Shown here piece by piece: positions 16,854-28,111 of a stretch of 35,268 nt of DNA. A program made the translations under genes and the position numbers. Below the pieces are notes generated by a model. It was given only the letters and a program-made list of their open reading frames with translations. It was not told the DNA's origin and ran no database searches. This DNA comes from an uncultured Candidatus Saccharibacteria bacterium. Its GTDB lineage: Bacteria > Patescibacteriota > Minisyncoccia > Minisyncoccales > CAZBVF01. Within the stretch, counting starts at the first letter, position 1, and every line of letters begins with the position of its first letter. The stretch is taken from positions 102,993 to 138,260 of the forward strand of contig CAZKKG010000001.1 in the NCBI GenBank assembly GCA_964553275.1, given 5' to 3'.

Positions 16854-17378
16854 TTATTTTAAGAATTTTAGCGACATCTTTCGGAGGAGATATTTTCTTT
16901 GGTCTTTTTCAAGATCAACAAATTCATCGGCTTCCTCCTTGAGTTTTGAAGAAGCCGATCTTCCAAAAGCAATGACTTCCACTCTTTTACCTTGATTTTT
17001 AAGATATTCTACTAATTGAAGAAAATCTCCGTCACCGGAGACAAGGACAATAGTGTCAACGCTTTGACATATCCTTATGGCATCAACTGTAATGCCAACG
17101 TCCCAATCAGCTTTTTTCATTCCTCCGTAATATTCCTGCAACTCCCTCACTCTGGTTTCTATTCCAAGCTTTACCAAGGCGTCAAAGAAGGGTTTCTCTT
17201 CCCCCGTTTTTGTTTTTACCACGTAGGCAAGAGCCCTGATTAGGCTTCTGTCTTTGACCGCCGTTGATAGGATTTCTTTGAAGTTGACTCGAGCTTGGTA
17301 CAGATTCTTTGCAGAATGATATAGGTTTTGAACGTCTATGAGGACCGCTATTCTTTGTTCTTTGTGTGTAACTATCAC
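16854..17378 (-). CDS. NYN/LabA (DUF88) PIN-fold protein
   Basis: IDVQNL, KADWDV, VSGDGDF and ADEFVDL. Confidence 0.9.
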   Translation of the reverse strand: MIVTHKEQRIAVLIDVQNLYHSAKNLYQARVNFKEILSTAVKDRSLIRALAYVVKTKTGEEKPFFDALVKLGIETRVRELQEYYGGMKKADWDVGITVDAIRICQSVDTIVLVSGDGDFLQLVEYLKNQGKRVEVIAFGRSASSKLKEEADEFVDLEKDQRKYLLRKMSLKFLK

Positions 17379-22200: not shown

Positions 22201-23073
22201 GTTCAAGTTTACGTTTTCGCTTTTTCCTCTAAAGGTACAAGTATATCCTTTACCATCATCGCTAATTCCCTGGCTAGTAACAAGCGTCTTGCTTTCATCT
22301 ACCGGGGTGCATTCTCCGCCTGTAGCTATTTCGTCTAACTCTTCACATTCTTTAGTTTTTGTTACTAAGTCGCCAGAAGTGTTTGGGTCGGAGTATGTTT
22401 CTTCTTCCTCCTCAATACAATCAACTGTTGTTTCACCATTAGCAGAAACTCCATCCGGGTCTATAGCCTCAAAGTCGCAATAATATCCCTTTCCATCACT
22501 AGTAATTCCTTCACTAGATACTTCACTATTTTCTCCCGGTTCACAACTTCCTCCCGTAGCTTCGTATCCCGAATCACATTCAGACGATACTTTAACACTA
22601 TCCTGACCTGTATCAGCAGTGCCGGAGGTTGTGTTTTGTTCTGGTCCTGGTTGTCCGCTACTGCCAGAAGTTTCGCATTCAATTTCCCACCATTTATACA
22701 AAGGACTGTCTGTTTGCGTCTTCACGATTCCGCTTCCAACTAAAAGTGCATCTATTATTATCCATGCACAGTAGATGATAATCAATCCGATAACCACCGA
22801 AGTAATGGTCGTATTTGCGCGCCTTAATGCCGCAGGACTTATTCCTCCGAGATAGTACAGCACGCCTCCGAATAAAAGCATGAGCGCCGCTAAGGGCGGT
22901 ACTATATTAATCATCACAAGCTTTACAATGTTGTTGAACATAACAAAGAGATGGCACAAAGTGCACTCTGGTTGTCCTTCTCCTCCGCAAGGCACCAGGC
23001 CTTCAGCATGGATTAAAAAGGGAACCATAAGAAGAAAAAGCATTGCAAAACCCGCTAAGATTGTTTTTTTCAT
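19228..23073 (-). CDS. Large surface protein: pilin-like N-terminus, ATGG-C repeats, HFS-motif domain and Cys-rich disintegrin-like repeats
   Basis: Signal peptide, GLVPCG..CTLCHLF and two TM helices (CPR pilin/VirB2-like); 3 C..ATGG.C repeats; TSHFSIFAI; about 7 CxC...CC repeats. Confidence 0.8.
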   Translation of the reverse strand: MKKTILAGFAMLFLLMVPFLIHAEGLVPCGGEGQPECTLCHLFVMFNNIVKLVMINIVPPLAALMLLFGGVLYYLGGISPAALRRANTTITSVVIGLIIIYCAWIIIDALLVGSGIVKTQTDSPLYKWWEIECETSGSSGQPGPEQNTTSGTADTGQDSVKVSSECDSGYEATGGSCEPGENSEVSSEGITSDGKGYYCDFEAIDPDGVSANGETTVDCIEEEEETYSDPNTSGDLVTKTKECEELDEIATGGECTPVDESKTLVTSQGISDDGKGYTCTFRGKSENVNLNTFYPPEVNISVDCIPDPDYVPPEDDGTETYEKTYSDTNTFGIPLKETLECEDTDQIATGGECIPGENTTLTGGNELSNVSEGWYCEFTGDYNSGGSQYSGFNYPPIGTIKVYCETETTAESNLIVTPIRSTDDFVANEVNSVPESQGIIGDDVYLVVPQEDTTIPATITLAYTDSQIAGLDEDTLAIYHYDEILSRWVGLPSAVDTVNNTVTASTSHFSIFAIMGNKTTATDCECTSGPCCDGCHYHPKIQACEYEADYLWSCSGDFPSTDPSDNCGNSVVVQTRLKYQFCSGESASCTGLWTDWGNWSNKKTYKSCDSTEYCVSGAGACEYSSFCASSLCECINGACCDGCYFLDTNQKCDAEIETDYGCPWGTDCGDDLGIRARKKDRYCSGSSGYCNGEWGDWGLWSNWEVEKSCNNTDICSAKDKSCLTTQFCEPNNDCDCAYGDCCEDNCYYSDSNEICDFDYKEGYGCPWGVDPGSDVGVRYHFKNQYCSGDSAECTGSWDDWDEGSEWKVEESCSLNQFCDAGSSSCENVFPEGCECTDEDDCCSDGCCYDSDGTVCLVGAYFTNQCISCEWDNEGECSYTSNGSFIRPIKTCNNKECSSVGYEEKPNSCVCVRETDGEACGELTATCKHSTIYCPNCPNNYCKKTLKYACIDGECNMSSTLWGECCNPDTPKECEPGTACCTDEGYYEEYAKICQEYDWSECTGGEYTSECDNMKIGSQSMKTMACDEQGNCNISSWDIYRDCVITRNTYGIPCDEGAGYCENGQCEHYSDMVCTPGTSCCDPDGQYKPEGTRCFTDYSWGTCITDWDQASDCQESITGTQYKNHKVCDAFGSCSVDDKETTTCTDTQDTDGDECGSAMLYSQHCKDGKCVKDESSFGGECDPFSTCCTTDGDYESEGARCETDISWSSCSDCDYHGSCDEKADGTKKKYHTSCDGSGLCTLLDVEENDCTCTRNTNGNKCSATSGKDCYCSASKCYCPGGH

Positions 23074-23144
23074 GTTGATTAATTATATCACGGAATTTTA
23101 AATATTTAAATAAAAGAATTAAAAAATCTTCTTATGAATTTTAT

Positions 23145-23219
23145 TGGTGCCCTCGCTCCGACTCGAACGGAGATCTACGAGTCCGAAGCCCGTTATGTTA
23201 TCCATTACACCACGAGGGC
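23145..23219 (-). tRNA. tRNA-Arg(TCG), CCA encoded
   Basis: Acceptor GCCCTCG/CGAGGGC, anticodon arm ACGGG-CTTCGGA-CTCGT, T arm CTCCG-TTCGAGT-CGGAG, 3' ACCA. Confidence 0.95.
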
Positions 23220-23233
23220 AGATATTTGATTTA

Positions 23234-23249
23234 TGTTCCACGTGGAACT
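23234..23249. promoter_or_regulatory. parS site
   Basis: TGTTCCACGTGGAACT is 15/16 to the parS palindrome TGTTCCACGTGGAACA. Confidence 0.8.
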
Positions 23250-23331
23250 TCTTGAAAAAACTCTTTGCTCTTATGATTTTACCAGATATTTGGAAAAAAA
23301 CAAAATACGGGATATAATGAGGAAAATAAAT

Positions 23332-24870
23332 ATGAATATTCCAAAAGAAGTAAAATTTATCATTTCAGAACTTGAAAAGAACGGTTTTGAATCCTTTATT
23401 GTCGGAGGTTGCGTTCGAGATCTTTTTAACGGGAAAGAGCCCAATGATTGGGACGTTGCCACTTTGGCTGAACCAAAGGAAATAGAGAAGATCTTTCCGG
23501 AAAACTATGCAAATAATGATTTTGGAACGGTAACGGTTCGGATTAAAAAAACAAAAGACGATTTCTTTGAAGCGGAAGTCACCCCCTACAGAATTGAATC
23601 AAGATATACCGACAAAAGGCATCCTGATGAGATAAAATGGGCGAAAAGCATAGAAGAGGACTTAAAAAGGCGCGATTTTACCGTAAATGCTATGGCTTTG
23701 GGAATAAGATTCATTTCTTCAATGGAACCTCAGCCCTTAGGCCAAATTTATGGAAAGGGAGCAGGAGGAACCTATCCGGAAGAAAAAATGAAAATTGATA
23801 TTATTGATCTTTTCGAAGGCCGAAAAGACCTTAAAAGCAAAACCATTAGAGCCGTAGGAAAGGCAAAAGACAGGTTTTCAGAAGATGCCTTAAGGATGAT
23901 GAGGGCGGTAAGATTTGCTTCAACCTTAGGGGCAGGATGGAAAATTGAAGAGAAGACAAAGAAAGCTATTAAAGAGAATGCTCACCTTCTTTCCGTTATT
24001 TCCAAGGAAAGAATCAGAGACGAGTTAATGAAAATCATAATGTCAGAAAGGGCCAAGCAAGGAATTGAACTTTTAAGAGAATTAGACCTTCTCAAGCATG
24101 TTATCCCCGAGCTTGAAGAAGGGTATGGTGTAAGTCAGAATAAGCACCATACTTATGAAATCTACGACCATAACTTAAGGTGCTTGGGTTATGCATCAGA
24201 GAAGGGATACAACAAATATGTAAGATTGGCTGCTCTTCTTCATGATATTGCCAAGCCAAGAACTAAAGAAGGAGAAGGGATTGATGCTACCTTTTACGGC
24301 CATGAGATAGAAGGAGCTAAGATGACCAGGGATATTTTAAGAAGGCTTAAGTTTTCAGGAAAAGACATTAAGAAAGTAGTAACTTTGGTGAGGTATCACC
24401 TATTTTACTATAACGTGGATGAGGTTTCAGAGTCTTCGGTAAGAAGGCTGGTTCGCAATGTAGGCTATGAAAACATAGAAGAGCTGCTTCAAGTTAGATA
24501 CTGTGACAGGATTGGATCCGGATGTCCCAAAGCAGAACCGTACAAATTAAGACATTTAAAGTATTTGATTGAAAAAACTTCTCACGATCCTATCTCCGTT
24601 AAAATGTTGGCAGTTTCAGGCAGTGACGTTATGGATATATTAAAGATTTTCCCTTGTTCTAAGATAGGACAAGTTCTGGACATTTTGTTAGGACATGTTT
24701 TATCCTATCCCAAGAAGAATAAAAAAGATGTCCTAACAAAAGAAATTGAACGCTTGGGCAAGCTAAAGGACGAAGAATTAAAAGATCTTGCTGAAAAATC
24801 CCGGAAAGAGACCCAAGAAGTTGAAATGAAAATGGACTTTATGACGAAAAAGAAGTATTGGGTAAGTTAA
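23332..24870 (+). CDS. cca: CCA tRNA nucleotidyltransferase with HD domain
   Basis: VGGCVRD, DWDVAT, DLKRRDFTVNAMA, FSEDALRMMRAVRF, ERIRDE and LLHDIAK. Start moved to MNIPKEV because the longer ORF overlaps parS and a TATAAT box. Confidence 0.9.
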   Translation: MNIPKEVKFIISELEKNGFESFIVGGCVRDLFNGKEPNDWDVATLAEPKEIEKIFPENYANNDFGTVTVRIKKTKDDFFEAEVTPYRIESRYTDKRHPDEIKWAKSIEEDLKRRDFTVNAMALGIRFISSMEPQPLGQIYGKGAGGTYPEEKMKIDIIDLFEGRKDLKSKTIRAVGKAKDRFSEDALRMMRAVRFASTLGAGWKIEEKTKKAIKENAHLLSVISKERIRDELMKIIMSERAKQGIELLRELDLLKHVIPELEEGYGVSQNKHHTYEIYDHNLRCLGYASEKGYNKYVRLAALLHDIAKPRTKEGEGIDATFYGHEIEGAKMTRDILRRLKFSGKDIKKVVTLVRYHLFYYNVDEVSESSVRRLVRNVGYENIEELLQVRYCDRIGSGCPKAEPYKLRHLKYLIEKTSHDPISVKMLAVSGSDVMDILKIFPCSKIGQVLDILLGHVLSYPKKNKKDVLTKEIERLGKLKDEELKDLAEKSRKETQEVEMKMDFMTKKKYWVS

Positions 24871-24948
24871 AATTAGAAGTTGGTTGTTGAAAATTAGAAA
24901 TTGGTAAACTATTTTTCATTTTCTATTAACTATTTTCTGAGATATCAA

Positions 24949-25019
24949 CGGAGTGTGGTGTAATGGTAGCACGAGTTCCTCGGGTGAATTTAGCCCGGGT
25001 TCGAATCCCGGCACTCCGA
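24949..25019 (+). tRNA. tRNA-Pro(CGG), CCA not encoded
   Basis: Acceptor CGGAGTG/CACTCCG, anticodon arm AGTTC-CTCGGGT-GAATT, T arm CCGGG-TTCGAAT-CCCGG. Confidence 0.95.
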
Positions 25020-25034
25020 CTGTTTTTTTGCCAA

Positions 25035-25050
25035 TGTTTCACGTGGAACA
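25035..25050. promoter_or_regulatory. parS site
   Basis: TGTTTCACGTGGAACA matches the canonical parS consensus. Confidence 0.85.
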
Positions 25051-25067
25051 TTCTAATCTACAATTTA

Positions 25068-25685
25068 ATGAATAATATGAAAAGAGATGAGATAAATCGA
25101 ATTTTAGAGGATCTTAATAAAACTCAAAATAGAAATATAGTTATCATTGATTTTGGTAATGTCCAGAAATGGGAAGAAAGTTTAGGATGGAAAATAGGAA
25201 TTAAACAACTAGGAGGTTTAGTTAAGTGTTTTGCTCAAGGGAAAAGATTCTTGCGAAGATTCTACTATGGTTCCGATCTTGGGCCGAAAGAAAAGTCAAA
25301 AACCCTAAGTTTATGGTCGTCCATGGTTTTGGGAAAAGCCAGAATGAACAACTCGGAAGTTATTACCAAAAGGGTAAAGTATATCCCTGACAAAAATTAC
25401 AAAACAGGTTTTCTTAAAAAATGTAATTTCGATGTTGAAATCTCCGTTGATTTAATAAAAGAATCTGACAATTACGATAAAATAATTTTGTTTTCGGGAG
25501 ATGGTGATTTTGGCTATCTGCTTGAATATTTAAAGGAGAAATATAATAAAAAATCTATTGTTTTTGGAGCAAGAGGGCACATTGGCAAAGAATTGTACGA
25601 TGCAAAATCCAGAGGAATTGTTAGCAGTATCCTGTACGCAGAGGATTTAGAGTATAGATTGAATATGAGCAGATTTAGAAGATAG
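25068..25685 (+). CDS. NYN-domain (PIN-fold) putative RNase (start 25068 or 25077)
   Basis: IDFGNV, RFYYG, KCNFDVEI and FSGDGDF acidic motifs are intact. Confidence 0.85.
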   Translation: MNNMKRDEINRILEDLNKTQNRNIVIIDFGNVQKWEESLGWKIGIKQLGGLVKCFAQGKRFLRRFYYGSDLGPKEKSKTLSLWSSMVLGKARMNNSEVITKRVKYIPDKNYKTGFLKKCNFDVEISVDLIKESDNYDKIILFSGDGDFGYLLEYLKEKYNKKSIVFGARGHIGKELYDAKSRGIVSSILYAEDLEYRLNMSRFRR

Positions 25686-25687
25686 AA

Positions 25688-25750
25688 ATCAAAAACCCGC
25701 TTGAAAGCGGATTTTGATCAAAATCAGGTAAGCCTATAGCTTACACTATC
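25688..25750 (-). ncRNA. Candidate small RNA convergent with the NYN gene
   Basis: Minus-strand promoter upstream, hairpin GTAAGC-TATAG-GCTTAC (25728-25744), then terminator CCGCTT-TC-AAGCGG followed by a T tract; no ORF. Confidence 0.5.
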
Positions 25751-25778
25751 ACCTTATAATATACAAAATTATTGTCAA
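25751..25778 (-). promoter_or_regulatory. Minus-strand promoter pointing at the NYN 3' end
   Basis: TTGACA (25778-25773), 16 nt, TAAGGT. Confidence 0.5.
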
Positions 25779-25784
25779 GAGCAA

Positions 25785-25793
25785 TTATCCACA
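25785..25793 (+). promoter_or_regulatory. DnaA box
   Basis: Perfect intergenic TTATCCACA. Confidence 0.55.
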
Positions 25794-25857
25794 GACAATA
25801 AGATTTGCAAAATGACAAGGGTTAATGCTAAGAAAACAGTTTGAGAGAAGGCTTTCT

Positions 25858-25931
25858 GGGCCGATAGCTCAAAGGAAGAGTATTGCATTCGCATTGCAAA
25901 GATAAGGGTTCGAGTCCCTTTCGGTCCACCA
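25858..25931 (+). tRNA. tRNA-Ala(CGC), CCA encoded
   Basis: Acceptor GGGCCGA/TCGGTCC with G3:U70, anticodon arm TTGCA-TTCGCAT-TGCAA, T arm AAGGG-TTCGAGT-CCCTT. Confidence 0.95.
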
Positions 25932-25982
25932 AAGTTAATATGTTTTAGATTTGAAATTGTTTTTAAGTGTTTTAGCTTATAA

Positions 25983-26150
25983 ATGAAGCGGACATCACCT
26001 TCCAGACAGTTTCTGAAAGAGAAAAATAAAATAAAGTCGATTTTGTCGCCGGCAGGTAAAGAAAAGTGCTCGATTCTTTTAAAAAGGACAGATGTGCCGA
26101 TTGTGTATTTAAACGATAAAAAGGCTATACTAGAGAAGAAAGAACCCTAA
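25983..26150 (+). pseudogene. Probable C-terminal remnant of an NYN-domain gene (55 aa)
   Basis: FLKEKNKIKSILSP..KCSILLKRT..IVYLND resembles the segment after SGDGDF in CPR NYN proteins (recognised from memory); catalytic part is missing. Confidence 0.55.
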
Positions 26151-26206
26151 AAGAAAAAGCCCCCGATGTGGACAGCCACATAAGGGTCTCTTTCGTAGTG
26201 ATACTA
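26151..26206 (-). ncRNA. Candidate small RNA convergent with the NYN remnant
   Basis: Long hairpin AAAGAGACCCTTATGTGG-CTGT-CCACATCGGGGGCTTTTT downstream of a strong minus-strand promoter. Confidence 0.5.
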
Positions 26207-26208
26207 TA

Positions 26209-26236
26209 ATAATATCACATTATAAAGGGTTGTCAA
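26209..26236 (-). promoter_or_regulatory. Minus-strand promoter with extended -10
   Basis: TTGACA, 16 nt, TATTAT with a TGn extension; overlapped by inverted repeat GTGATA-N9-TATCAC (26198-26218). Confidence 0.65.
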
Positions 26237-26391
26237 TAGTCAGGAAACTTTCTTAACCTACTCATATGCAAACTGACAAAAAAGAAGAGTTTTTTACCTT
26301 AACACTTCTTAATACTTCTTTTATCTTTTATCTTTTTTTTGGTATAATCTTCTAAGTCCTAAAGTAAGCTAATATTAATAAAAACAATTTT

Positions 26392-27171
26392 ATGGAAACA
26401 CAGGAATTAGCTTCCAACATTAATCAAAAGCCTGTTCAATTGCCCGGGTTTTTCAAGCTTTTGAAAGAAAGCTTGGGAATAGTTAAAGAAAGATTTTGGA
26501 TTTATTTAGGAATTATACTTATTCCAACAATAGGAATAAGTATAATTATTGTTCTTCTTGCTATCGGGGCGAGTTTATTAACGGCACTTTTTGCCGTTTC
26601 AGGATTTAAGTGGGCGTTTCTTATCATCCTTCTTATGCTTGTCGCTATTGTTGTCATATGGCCGACGCTTGCTATTCTTTATGTTGCCAAAGAGAGAAAT
26701 AGAGATGTAGGCGTTTTTGAAGCTCTAAGAAAAACTTTTCCTAAGATTTTACCTGCATACTGGATTTCTTTATTGGTCAATTTGGCTGTTTCCGCTGGAT
26801 TTCTCTTTCTTGTAATTCCCGGTTTTATTTTTTGGGTTTGGTTTTCTTTAGCTACCCCCGTTCTTTTATCAGAAAACGTTAGGGGGGTTAAAGCTTTATC
26901 AAGAAGCAAGGAATTGGTAAAAGGAAAAGCATGGGAAGTCTTTGTTAGACTGATGGGATTAACGATAATTGGCGGATTGGTTAGTTTTATTACAAGCCCT
27001 CTTCTTAAAAGTGATATGGTCGTTAAAAATCTGATTGCCTATTTAATGCTAATTCCAACAGCATTAGTCCTTAATGTTTTTATTTTTTTACTTTATGAAA
27101 AACTAAGGGATATACGGAAAGAGGATTACAAGGAAGAAAGGATAGAAGGAGAAACTTATCAAGGAGCTTAA
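26392..27171 (+). CDS. Integral membrane protein (about 6 TM, DUF975/YciC-like)
   Basis: Alternating TM helices, LFLVIPG and ALSRSKELVKGK.W. Confidence 0.75.
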   Translation: METQELASNINQKPVQLPGFFKLLKESLGIVKERFWIYLGIILIPTIGISIIIVLLAIGASLLTALFAVSGFKWAFLIILLMLVAIVVIWPTLAILYVAKERNRDVGVFEALRKTFPKILPAYWISLLVNLAVSAGFLFLVIPGFIFWVWFSLATPVLLSENVRGVKALSRSKELVKGKAWEVFVRLMGLTIIGGLVSFITSPLLKSDMVVKNLIAYLMLIPTALVLNVFIFLLYEKLRDIRKEDYKEERIEGETYQGA

Positions 27172-27264
27172 ATCAGCAATAGGAACGTCGAGGTTAAGAT
27201 TCCATAGATTACTAAAGAGGCGAGAGCCTCTTTTTGTTTTCTGCAAATATTGGCTCCAAATCGC

Positions 27265-27292
27265 TTGACAAACTCCGTTAATTTGGTATAAT
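27265..27292 (+). promoter_or_regulatory. Consensus sigma70 promoter
   Basis: TTGACA, 16 nt, TATAAT with TG extension. Confidence 0.8.
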
Positions 27293-27348
27293 ACAGACGA
27301 AAAGAGAGGAATTTCTTTTCAAAGTATATTAAAAAGGAGGCAGGAAAA

Positions 27349-27492
27349 ATGTTATTATACATAATTCCCGGAGTGGTTTTGATTTGTTTAGTATATTTGA
27401 CTGATGGTAGAAAAATAGAACATAAAATTGGCATCAAGAGAACAAATACTGATCACGATTGTATGGTTTCAATGGCTTACTCAGATTGGTAA
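27349..27492 (+). CDS. Small hydrophobic protein, 47 aa (MLLYIIPGVVLICLVYLTDGRK...), absent from the ORF track
   Basis: Follows a consensus promoter and an AAGGAGG SD; N-terminal TM helix. Confidence 0.5.
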   Translation: MLLYIIPGVVLICLVYLTDGRKIEHKIGIKRTNTDHDCMVSMAYSDW

Positions 27493-27544
27493 AACTGGAG
27501 GATTCAAGAGTTTTTCAATAAACACTTGAAAGGAGGTGAAAAAA

Positions 27545-27757
27545 ATGCCTCGGGATGAAATAAGTGATGTCAGAAAGGGAGAGATTGCTTTGGCTATCTT
27601 GAAATATAGGATACAGAAAGAAGGTATCCATCTCGGACCGAATCTTAAAAGAGAGCTAGGTAATTTATCCAAAGAGACAGGGATTCCTCAAGACGAGCTG
27701 AAAGAATTTTGGAAACTCTATATTAAGGAGTTTCTCAAAGAAACTTTGAGTGAGTAA
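27545..27757 (+). CDS. Small hypothetical protein (70 aa)
   Basis: Perfect SD AAGGAGGTGA before the ATG; helical RKGEIAL..RELGN..GI...E pattern. Confidence 0.75.
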   Translation: MPRDEISDVRKGEIALAILKYRIQKEGIHLGPNLKRELGNLSKETGIPQDELKEFWKLYIKEFLKETLSE

Positions 27758-28111
27758 TGGGGAAAAGAGAAGAAGGCAGGGTTGAAGCATTTTTGCTTCC
27801 TAAAGGGGTAATTGCACTTCCTTTGCAATTTTTGCAAAGCAAAGGCAGAACAAGAACCTTTCCCCCCTTCTTCTCAAACAAATCGTAGCTAAAGGTTACG
27901 ATATAAAGGAGAATCGGAAGAAATCTTTTCAGATTTGAAAATTATCTCATTAATTTTCTCTTCTGAAATCTAAAGATTTTCTTCTCCCTCCTTTTTATTT
28001 CGTTTCCAATGTTTCCTAATCAATAGCTTGGACGCACTCAAGAGAGGTTACTAAAGAGATGACAAACGATATGCGCGGATTTATGAAAAGGCTTTATTAA
28101 ATAAATTTGCC

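Follow-up and report, generated by a model that had tools for sequence, protein, structure and literature searches.

A convergent small RNA linked to a LabA-like NYN ribonuclease gene: a candidate toxin/RNA-antitoxin cassette in Patescibacteria

The window analysed here is a stretch of 35,268 nucleotides (nt) from the genome of an uncultured Candidatus Saccharibacteria bacterium (486 kb, 36% G+C, 24 contigs, completeness 92.65%). Its gene NYN-A encodes a ribonuclease (RNase) of the LabA-like NYN family and is met, just beyond its stop codon, by a short unit on the opposite strand that is predicted to yield a small RNA (sRNA), here named sRNA-A (Table 1). A preliminary description of this DNA had placed the NYN gene between two transfer RNA (tRNA) genes and had read a facing minus-strand promoter, TTGACA-16-TAAGGT, as the source of an RNA of about 60 nt that lacks an open reading frame (ORF) and barely reaches the coding sequence (CDS). 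The flanking genes are indeed those of tRNA-Pro and tRNA-Ala, the promoter aligns exactly with one that is conserved in 63 homologous loci, and the minus-strand run of U residues that would end sRNA-A stops 2–8 nt short of the NYN-A stop codon, TAG at 25683–25685.

Read on the minus strand, the segment 25687–25746 folds with a free energy of −21.1 kcal/mol (z = −4.3), and the hairpin at 25697–25710 obtains a terminator-like score on either strand. On the sRNA-A side the terminator tail UUUUUGAUUU follows directly after the hairpin of 12 base pairs (bp). A search of Rfam 15 with 22500–28000 at E values up to 1 gave three tRNAs and one chance match, with no match to sRNA-A, and ToxI-like tandem repeats were not found in 25686–25800. 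A peptide encoded in sRNA-A was considered and rejected on a by-eye judgement, as no reading frame is kept across the family because the helix lengths, and with them the RNAs (57–74 nt in alignment A3, described below), differ by non-multiples of three. The observation of sRNA-A is thus accurate, yet it would be weak if judged on the window sequence alone, and the comparison of homologous loci carries the case.

Table 1. Features of the window around NYN-A and sRNA-A.
Feature	Position	Strand	Remarks
CCA-adding enzyme gene	23233–24870		left of tRNA-Pro
tRNA-Pro(cgg)	24949–25020	+	left border of variable slot
NYN-A gene, LabA-like NYN RNase	25068–25685	+	205 amino acids (aa); 202 aa from the likelier start, ATG 25077
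Shared bidirectional terminator hairpin, 12-bp extended stem	25687–25719	both	U-run strong for sRNA-A, weak for NYN messenger RNA (mRNA)
sRNA-A, about 57 nt, without ORF	25688–25744	−	ends predicted from −10 spacing and U-run
Conserved single-stranded linker of sRNA-A	25720–25727	−	unpaired in fold; runs into terminator stem
HP1, 5′-terminal hairpin of sRNA-A, 6–7 bp	25728–25744	−	fold and covariation; YUNR-type loop in most homologues
sRNA-A promoter	25751–25778	−	−35 TTGACA 25778–25773, 16-nt spacer, −10 TAAGGT 25756–25751
TTATCCACA, DnaA-box consensus	25785–25793	+	6 nt upstream of sRNA-A −35
tRNA-Ala(cgc)	25858–25931	+	right border of variable slot
55-aa ORF, C-terminal remnant of NYN-B	25983–26150	+	tblastn with NYN-B of L152
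sRNA-B unit	26152–26236	−	−35 26236–26231, −10 26214–26209, predicted start about 26202, hairpin and U-run to about 26152
Membrane-protein gene	26392–27171		right of 55-aa ORF

The NYN-A reading frame is intact, and an alignment of 28 homologues (A1) favours the second ATG as its start. The protein matches the Pfam NYN profile PF01936 with an E value of 4.9e-15 and 56.7 bits, compared with a cut-off of 24.2. The acidic motifs, which the preliminary description had judged intact, are invariant across the 28 sequences; they comprise D28, D122, D145 and D147 (SGDGD motif), residues that we take to form the active site (metal site). An AlphaFold model of the protein has a predicted local distance difference test (pLDDT) score of 92.4, and Foldseek matched this model to the LabA-like NYN structure 2qip (E 1.5e-9; template modelling score, TM, 0.73 on the target) and to the MARF1 NYN domain 5yaa (E 1.9e-4). 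A profile of the 28 homologues also matched 2qip (E 3.6e-10). By profile, motifs and fold, NYN-A belongs to the LabA-like NYN family: it has domain, motifs and fold in common with the LabA-like NYN proteins (PF01936; VPA0982, PDB 2qip; MARF1), and differs from them in about 40 extra residues and in the fixed RNA gene at the 3′ end of its gene. Among 830 database candidates we obtained 748 relatives at E values up to 0.001; the best 120 of them are about 200 aa long and 55–100% identical, and the named homologues returned by the database search are from Patescibacteria. In viral contigs no NYN-A orthologue was found; there were 44 distant NYN relatives, the best of them 33% identical over most of its length.

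To compare the RNA unit between loci, we fetched the NYN-A orthologue loci (80 from metagenomes and 3 from genomes) and retained 64 non-redundant 3′ flanks with a length of 125 nt or more. The sRNA-A element lies directly after the NYN stop codon in 63 of the 64, which make up alignment A3; the sole flank without it, L034, belongs to an NYN gene that matches the query over residues 4–146 only. RNAalifold on A3 returned a 6-bp 5′ hairpin, a single strand of 10–12 nt and a 12-bp terminator. Compensatory changes were seen in 13 of the 18 base pairs, four of six in HP1 and nine of twelve in the terminator stem. Paired cells amount to 96.5% versus 86.6% in shuffled alignments and the covariation score is 0.398 versus 0.200, and for neither measure did any of 500 shuffles reach the observed value; with the partners slid by 1–3 columns as a control, 29–54% paired. 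The helices hold 84 G-U cells when read as the minus strand versus 4 when read as the plus strand, an asymmetry that indicates a minus-strand RNA.

The promoter and terminator are conserved along with the fold. The −35 element has at least five of six consensus matches in 51 of the 63 loci, the −10 reads TAnnnT in 60 and is preceded by a TGn extension in 39, and the spacer measures 16–18 nt in 61, its sequence varying while the hexamers are kept. The predicted 5′ end of the family RNA falls 6–8 nt past the −10. Runs of at least five T residues follow the stem on the minus strand in 52/63 loci and on the plus strand in 0/63, and because they sit on the minus strand only, the shared terminator would stop the sRNA transcript efficiently and would leak in the NYN direction. 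The HP1 loop carries a YUNR motif in 47/63 loci. The best-conserved sequence of sRNA-A across the 63 sequences is the linker (family consensus YYNGAYUUUNWUC), in which columns T25–T27, T30 and C31, that is UUU and UC, are invariant, with the accompanying proteins 55–80% identical.

Gene and RNA are strictly linked. The covariance model R1 finds sRNA-A in 82 of 84 NYN-A loci, always opposite to the NYN gene, and these matches include four of four reference genomes that had been left out of model building; the model missed L072 and L074 only, where the available 3′ flank measures 0 and 25 nt, respectively. In the window R1 matches 25687–25746 with 80.3 bits, and this match is the single one in its genome. 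Strong matches among 151 genomes of the phylum occur in exactly the five NYN-A carriers, and no R1 matches were found at 57 loci holding other NYN families. An apparent orphan copy of sRNA-A in G046 (weak R1 match, 34 bits) was rejected as a plain bidirectional terminator between unrelated genes. The covariance analysis of 3′ flanks that the preliminary description had named as a check has thus uncovered a conserved structure and promoter. No conserved protein-coding neighbour of NYN-A was found, since the up- and downstream genes vary by locus, which agrees with the earlier statement that the gene has no protein antitoxin partner. Sequence comparison thus establishes that sRNA-A exists, what its structure, strand and promoter are, and that it is strictly linked to NYN-A; the two very probably constitute one functional unit.

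The distribution of this unit is patchy. NYN-A is present in 5 of 401 genomes of the phylum, spread over five families, and no orthologue was found in 40 same-order relatives, where the only NYN protein is a different paralogue, about 170 aa long. The window itself has a third NYN paralogue (about 16959–17129, minus strand; 181-aa ORF), with counterparts of about 170 aa in 36 of the 40 same-order relatives. A housekeeping RNase or protein-only RNase P had been considered for the tRNA and CCA-adding enzyme neighbours; this candidate was dropped, with no search aimed at RNase P, because NYN-A is absent from 40/40 relatives, occurs in 5/401 genomes and is tRNA-adjacent in only 6/82 other loci. 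The tRNA setting is not a feature of the family.

The gap upstream of NYN-A is often 1–30 nt. In 8 of 68 loci hsdM lies immediately upstream, at a gap of 1–7 nt, and in 6 of 65 loci hsdS lies downstream of the NYN-A cassette, so that at such loci the cassette sits within type I restriction-modification (R-M) operons; L097 and L108 are examples of the order hsdM, NYN-A, sRNA-A, hsdS. Other neighbours encode RadC, AbiEii, Fic, Phd/YefM, Mrr, PD-(D/E)XK nucleases, DNA methylases, KilA-N and an integrase, and there are also housekeeping genes, for TrmD, FtsW and the DNA polymerase III clamp loader. PrrC and RloC are anticodon nucleases encoded in type I R-M loci, and PrrC is restrained by the R-M protein complex. 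The NYN-A RNase gene resembles them in lying between hsdM and hsdS in several loci; PrrC has an unrelated fold and is not restrained by an RNA, and most NYN-A copies lie outside R-M operons. Directly upstream of the NYN-A cassette in L070 there is a further NYN-domain gene (1232–1939; 236 aa, PF01936 E 9e-13). Neither conserved sequence nor a conserved promoter belonging to the gene was found upstream of NYN-A across loci. Where NYN-A is not fused to an upstream operon (L079, L089, L091, L122, L123 and others), a TATAAT-like box is seen 14–22 nt before the ATG and a Shine-Dalgarno sequence is not seen; the NYN-A message may there be nearly leaderless.

In the host's relatives the gene order CCA-adding enzyme gene, tRNA-Pro, tRNA-Ala is shared and the interval between the tRNAs varies, as a comparison of window positions 24949–25931 with L145, L146, L147 and L148 revealed. 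The slot measures 109 nt and is empty in G002; in the sister genome G001 it is occupied by a gene for a DUF7387 protein and one for a HicA toxin (E 1.4e-16), in G009 by a gene for a HAD hydrolase and in G005 by two unknown ORFs. Relative to G002, the insertion in the window spans about 25055–25857. Several further observations concern this region. Right after tRNA-Pro there is a palindrome, TGTT(T/C)CACGTGGAACA (window 25027–25045, L145 1742–1757, L146 1644–1677), which both sister genomes share, G002 having it twice, and which could act as a terminator or bind a protein. G002 also has a fragment like the 5′ half of the window's tRNA-Ala, ahead of a differently sequenced tRNA-Ala (L146 1687–1720). 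The G001 match to the CCA-adding enzyme (L145 92–1654) contains two in-frame stops, TAG and TAA, for which a pseudogene, a sequencing error or recoding could account. Finally, a 21-nt unit is repeated 2.2 times at 24857–24904, between the CCA-enzyme stop codon and tRNA-Pro.

At 13 of 73 loci, 11 of them distinct, the cassette lies between direct repeats (L064, L066, L067, L079, L094/L096, L103, L107, L118, L120/L121, L131, L141). They are 17–86 nt long, 85–100% identical and 796–930 nt apart. They are made of local sequence, are specific to each locus and lie outside the conserved element; those of L064, L066 and L079 correspond to the 3′ end of radC. As duplications, these repeats point to cassette insertion events, and our guess is that they would arise from single-crossover integration of a DNA circle carrying a stretch of homology. 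An integron attC or common att site is disfavoured by the locus-specific nature of the repeats, and a core of the GTTRRRY type was not seen in an inspection by eye only. The NYN-A/sRNA-A pair behaves as an accessory mobile cassette of about 0.8 kb that resides in defence or mobile contexts.

Such mobility, with its flanking duplications, would also suit a reading without any RNA gene, in which there is only a terminator of the NYN gene and a chance promoter, and the conserved DNA is a recombination or attachment site of the mobile cassette. This reading gains as well from the window −10, TAAGGT, which agrees with the consensus at three of six positions, for which reason the promoter was not listed by a consensus scan. 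We nevertheless consider it extremely improbable. The hexamers and their 16–18-nt spacing are kept while the spacer sequence drifts, two helices are maintained by compensatory changes, and the 84:4 asymmetry of G-U cells speaks for a minus-strand RNA; the flanking repeats, moreover, share no att core and do not include the conserved element.

The preliminary description had also noticed the same layout recurring 300 nt away, and this is a genuine second example, sRNA-B beside a remnant of a second NYN gene, NYN-B. In tblastn the intact 161-aa NYN-B of L152 matched the 55-aa ORF over residues 120–156 with 54% identity (E 1.5e-7), and the tail of this ORF is almost identical to the NYN-B tail of L038, whose own unit differs from window sRNA-B by a compensatory pair in the hairpin. 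The sRNA-B promoter scores 11/12 against the consensus and has a TG extension. DNA of sRNA-B matches units in two relatives, and in one of them, G019, the unit follows an intact 161-aa NYN-B gene; intact NYN-B genes with homologous RNA units behind them are present in further genomes as well. sRNA-B is not a copy of sRNA-A; the two are akin in kind and unlike in sequence. NYN-B itself was found in 100 of the 401 phylum genomes (E up to 1e-25), and a −35-like hexamer faces its 3′ end in 28 of 33 distinct records. The family-B alignment A4 (29 sequences) has an invariant TTGAC, a −10 and a conserved unpaired 5′ AUCACnAYGA, followed by a hairpin whose apex, GGUUYCGUCC, is conserved, and by a U-run; compensatory changes occur at each of the seven pairs that RNAalifold predicted from a rough alignment. 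At several loci the RNA hairpin extends into the 3′ end of the NYN-B CDS, an arrangement that would suit antisense action. Contig G437:C3 (L158) carries identical tandem NYN-B copies at 960–1430 and 1858–2328, 898 nt apart, each with the same 3′ flank. Judging by these matches, the window holds an intact module A and a decayed module B, whose nuclease gene is cut short and whose RNA unit survives.

That the NYN-B pair is found in a quarter as many genomes as were searched, 100 of 401, makes a non-toxic regulatory RNase an alternative to be taken seriously. Here sRNA-A would be an antisense or 3′-end regulator, or a substrate, of an accessory RNase that tunes RNA metabolism, for example that of the operons in which the cassette lands, with no role in killing or defence, and the housekeeping neighbours at some loci (TrmD, FtsW and the clamp loader) would fit. 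The extreme patchiness of NYN-A (5/401 phylum genomes, 0/40 relatives) argues against it, as do the placement of the pair in type I R-M operons and next to genes for AbiEii, Fic and Phd, the insertion events marked by flanking duplications, the occupation of the same slot by HicA in a sister genome, and the truncation of the nuclease gene where a partner is lost. We therefore regard the non-toxic reading as quite improbable. The pattern of loss in particular resembles toxin-antitoxin (TA) decay, because L034, which lacks the RNA, has a partial NYN gene and the truncated NYN-B keeps its RNA promoter.

On balance, the NYN-A/sRNA-A pair is probably a module of the toxin/RNA-antitoxin type. We infer that sRNA-A restrains the NYN RNase, and with this we infer transcription of the module in vivo, toxicity of the RNase, its neutralisation by the RNA and the DnaA link discussed below. 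As to mechanism, we tentatively favour an antisense mode of the type I kind. In this scheme the NYN gene would rely on upstream transcription, and sRNA-A would be transcribed from a conserved sigma-70-type promoter of its own, the −10 of which is extended in many loci. The two transcripts would meet at the shared terminator, where the NYN mRNA would read into the complement of the sRNA, and pairing would begin through the 5′ hairpin loop and the single-stranded linker. RNase III, which is encoded in the genome, would then cut the duplex, the NYN message would lose its protective 3′ end, and the level of NYN would stay low. Should sRNA-A synthesis drop, NYN would accumulate and cellular or invader RNA would be cut. 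With this layout, sRNA-A and the NYN mRNA would necessarily be complementary across the shared terminator, and given the predicted transcript ends a perfect duplex of about 57 bp would form only with read-through.

This layout resembles the type I systems par or txpA/RatA more closely than it does type III systems. In PMC7472228, par of pAD1 is described as having convergent promoters, a bidirectional terminator and a small antitoxin RNA of about 40–65 nt, with a YUNR U-turn loop that starts pairing. The present pair is like par (Enterococcus faecalis pAD1, Fst RNA I/RNA II, type I) in its convergent promoters, shared bidirectional terminator, small RNA and YUNR loop. Unlike the par toxin, a membrane peptide of about 33 aa, NYN-A is a soluble NYN RNase of 202 aa, and the RNA sequences are unrelated; the direct repeats DRa/DRb, which in par cover the toxin ribosome-binding site, have no counterpart found here. 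A 13-nt repeat at 25293–25305, the only such repeat in the window, was rejected as par-like because it lies in a variable part of the CDS.

In txpA/RatA, according to PMC4147584, the overlap between antitoxin and toxin mRNA is confined to the 3′ end of the latter, and decay depends on RNase III. The NYN-A pair is comparable to this system and to bsrG/SR4 (both of Bacillus subtilis) in its predicted 3′-end overlap and in the presence of an RNase III gene; it differs in that txpA/RatA has small hydrophobic peptide toxins and a longer overlap. Most type I toxins are likewise small hydrophobic peptides (below about 60 aa), which NYN-A is not. PMC4147584 also presents SymE as a 113-aa RNase-like type I toxin, and SymE and RalR as accepted exceptions to the small-peptide rule. 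A nuclease-type toxin with a cis-encoded antisense RNA is what the present pair would share with SymE/SymR and RalR/RalA of E. coli, and it would be the only likeness to SymE/SymR: SymR covers the 5′ end and start codon, SymE has an AbrB-like fold as opposed to NYN, and SymE is under LexA control and has no DnaA box. Searches of open-access papers and bioRxiv returned no work that ties an NYN/LabA protein to an RNA acting as its antitoxin or pairing with its message.

Several observations weigh against the toxin-antitoxin interpretation, or against its antisense form. Besides the window's weak −10 and the abundance of NYN-B, both given above, PADLOC returned for NYN-A a partial match to its generic NYN model only. 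Among the Logan contigs of four metatranscriptomes, in which uncovered parts carry no meaning, X12 covers 25507–25778 (depth 4.2) and 25873–26234, and X13 covers 25157–25535; X12 spans the NYN-A 3′ end and the sRNA-A unit and is uninformative on strand, ends and RNA origin. A second, par-like pairing site at the NYN 5′ end was not found when duplex energies were compared at 56 loci: for whole sRNA-A against the NYN mRNA the 5′ windows were the weakest, and the linker alone paired with the NYN 5′ end at about −6 kcal/mol, no better than foreign linkers. The 5′ hairpin and strong terminator suggest a stable RNA, unlike the labile classical RNA antitoxins. Lastly, pure cis-antisense action does not explain the conservation of the linker.

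This last point favours direct binding of NYN by the RNA, because a purely cis-antisense RNA would not need a conserved linker. In a mechanism of the type III kind, folded sRNA-A would bind the NYN protein, blocking its active site or acting as a decoy, and the antisense overlap would be incidental. Type III TA systems, which also include CptIN and TenpIN, use as antitoxin a same-strand, upstream tandem array of 36-nt repeats that is processed by the toxin, whereas sRNA-A is single-copy and convergent. Protein binding would account for the invariant UUU and UC of the linker in 63 sequences whose proteins are 55–80% identical, and family B, too, keeps an unpaired 5′ AUCACnAYGA; Hfq was not found in the 92.65%-complete genome. 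The partner is moreover an RNase, as in ToxIN, which according to PMC4147584 is an endoribonuclease toxin neutralised by a small structured RNA and serving abortive-infection defence on mobile DNA. Against these points, a single-copy convergent RNA without a repeat array is unlike every known type III locus, and NYN-A does not belong to the ToxN/AbiQ/CptN/TenpN families, having the Pfam NYN domain only and a LabA/MARF1-like fold in place of the ToxN/AbiQ fold. We consider a type III-like mode rather unlikely. Thus, of the type III-like toxin/defence module put forward in the preliminary description, the RNA partner and a toxin-antitoxin or defence-like character of the pair have stood, and the type III label has not, for there is neither a repeat array nor a ToxN fold.

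A further, possible element of the scheme is the 9-mer TTATCCACA beside the sRNA-A −35, which we take to be a DnaA box. In the 110 nt that precede the RNA start, 17 of 63 loci carry an exact copy, and 24 of 63 carry one when a single mismatch is allowed; the boxes lie mostly at one offset, 36–43 nt from the RNA 5′ end, and are sometimes inverted. Control flanks of equal size had an exact copy in 1/59 and 0/56 cases, and family-B units had an exact copy in 1/29 and one with at most one mismatch in 4/29. The host genome holds seven exact copies, versus six expected by chance, without a clear cluster. Through this box beside the −35, DnaA may regulate sRNA-A synthesis, so that in a third of the family production of the RNA would be tied to DnaA. 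Literature on a DnaA box at an antitoxin RNA promoter was not found in the open-access papers and bioRxiv.

A broader proposal would make NYN genes with convergent sRNAs a large, undescribed RNA-antitoxin superfamily of the ultra-small Patescibacteria, with binding of the RNase through the invariant unpaired motif, gating by DnaA, a role in abortive infection and spread by DNA circles. It would have at least two families, the rare A and the B found in about a quarter of the genomes sampled, and its architecture would be a new one of the type III kind built on a PIN-like fold. Under it, lost replication-initiator activity, as in phage takeover or DNA damage, would release the RNase, and uptake of a DNA circle followed by single-crossover integration would leave the flanking duplications. 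Taken as a whole, we think this proposal improbable.

If the toxin/RNA-antitoxin interpretation is true, the PIN-like NYN RNase would be a new toxin fold for RNA antitoxins, of which the known partners are type I peptides and type III ToxN-like RNases, and sRNA-A would add to the RNA antitoxins a new RNA family, one that is absent from Rfam 15. The pair is compact (about 0.8 kb) and sharply bounded, and it comes with more than 80 natural variants and many compensatory changes. Its setting is the Candidate Phyla Radiation, a group in which hardly anything is known about regulatory RNAs and defences, and both the possible link to DnaA and the duplications around the cassette are relevant to how such units may be regulated and may move in bacteria with genomes of 0.5 Mb.

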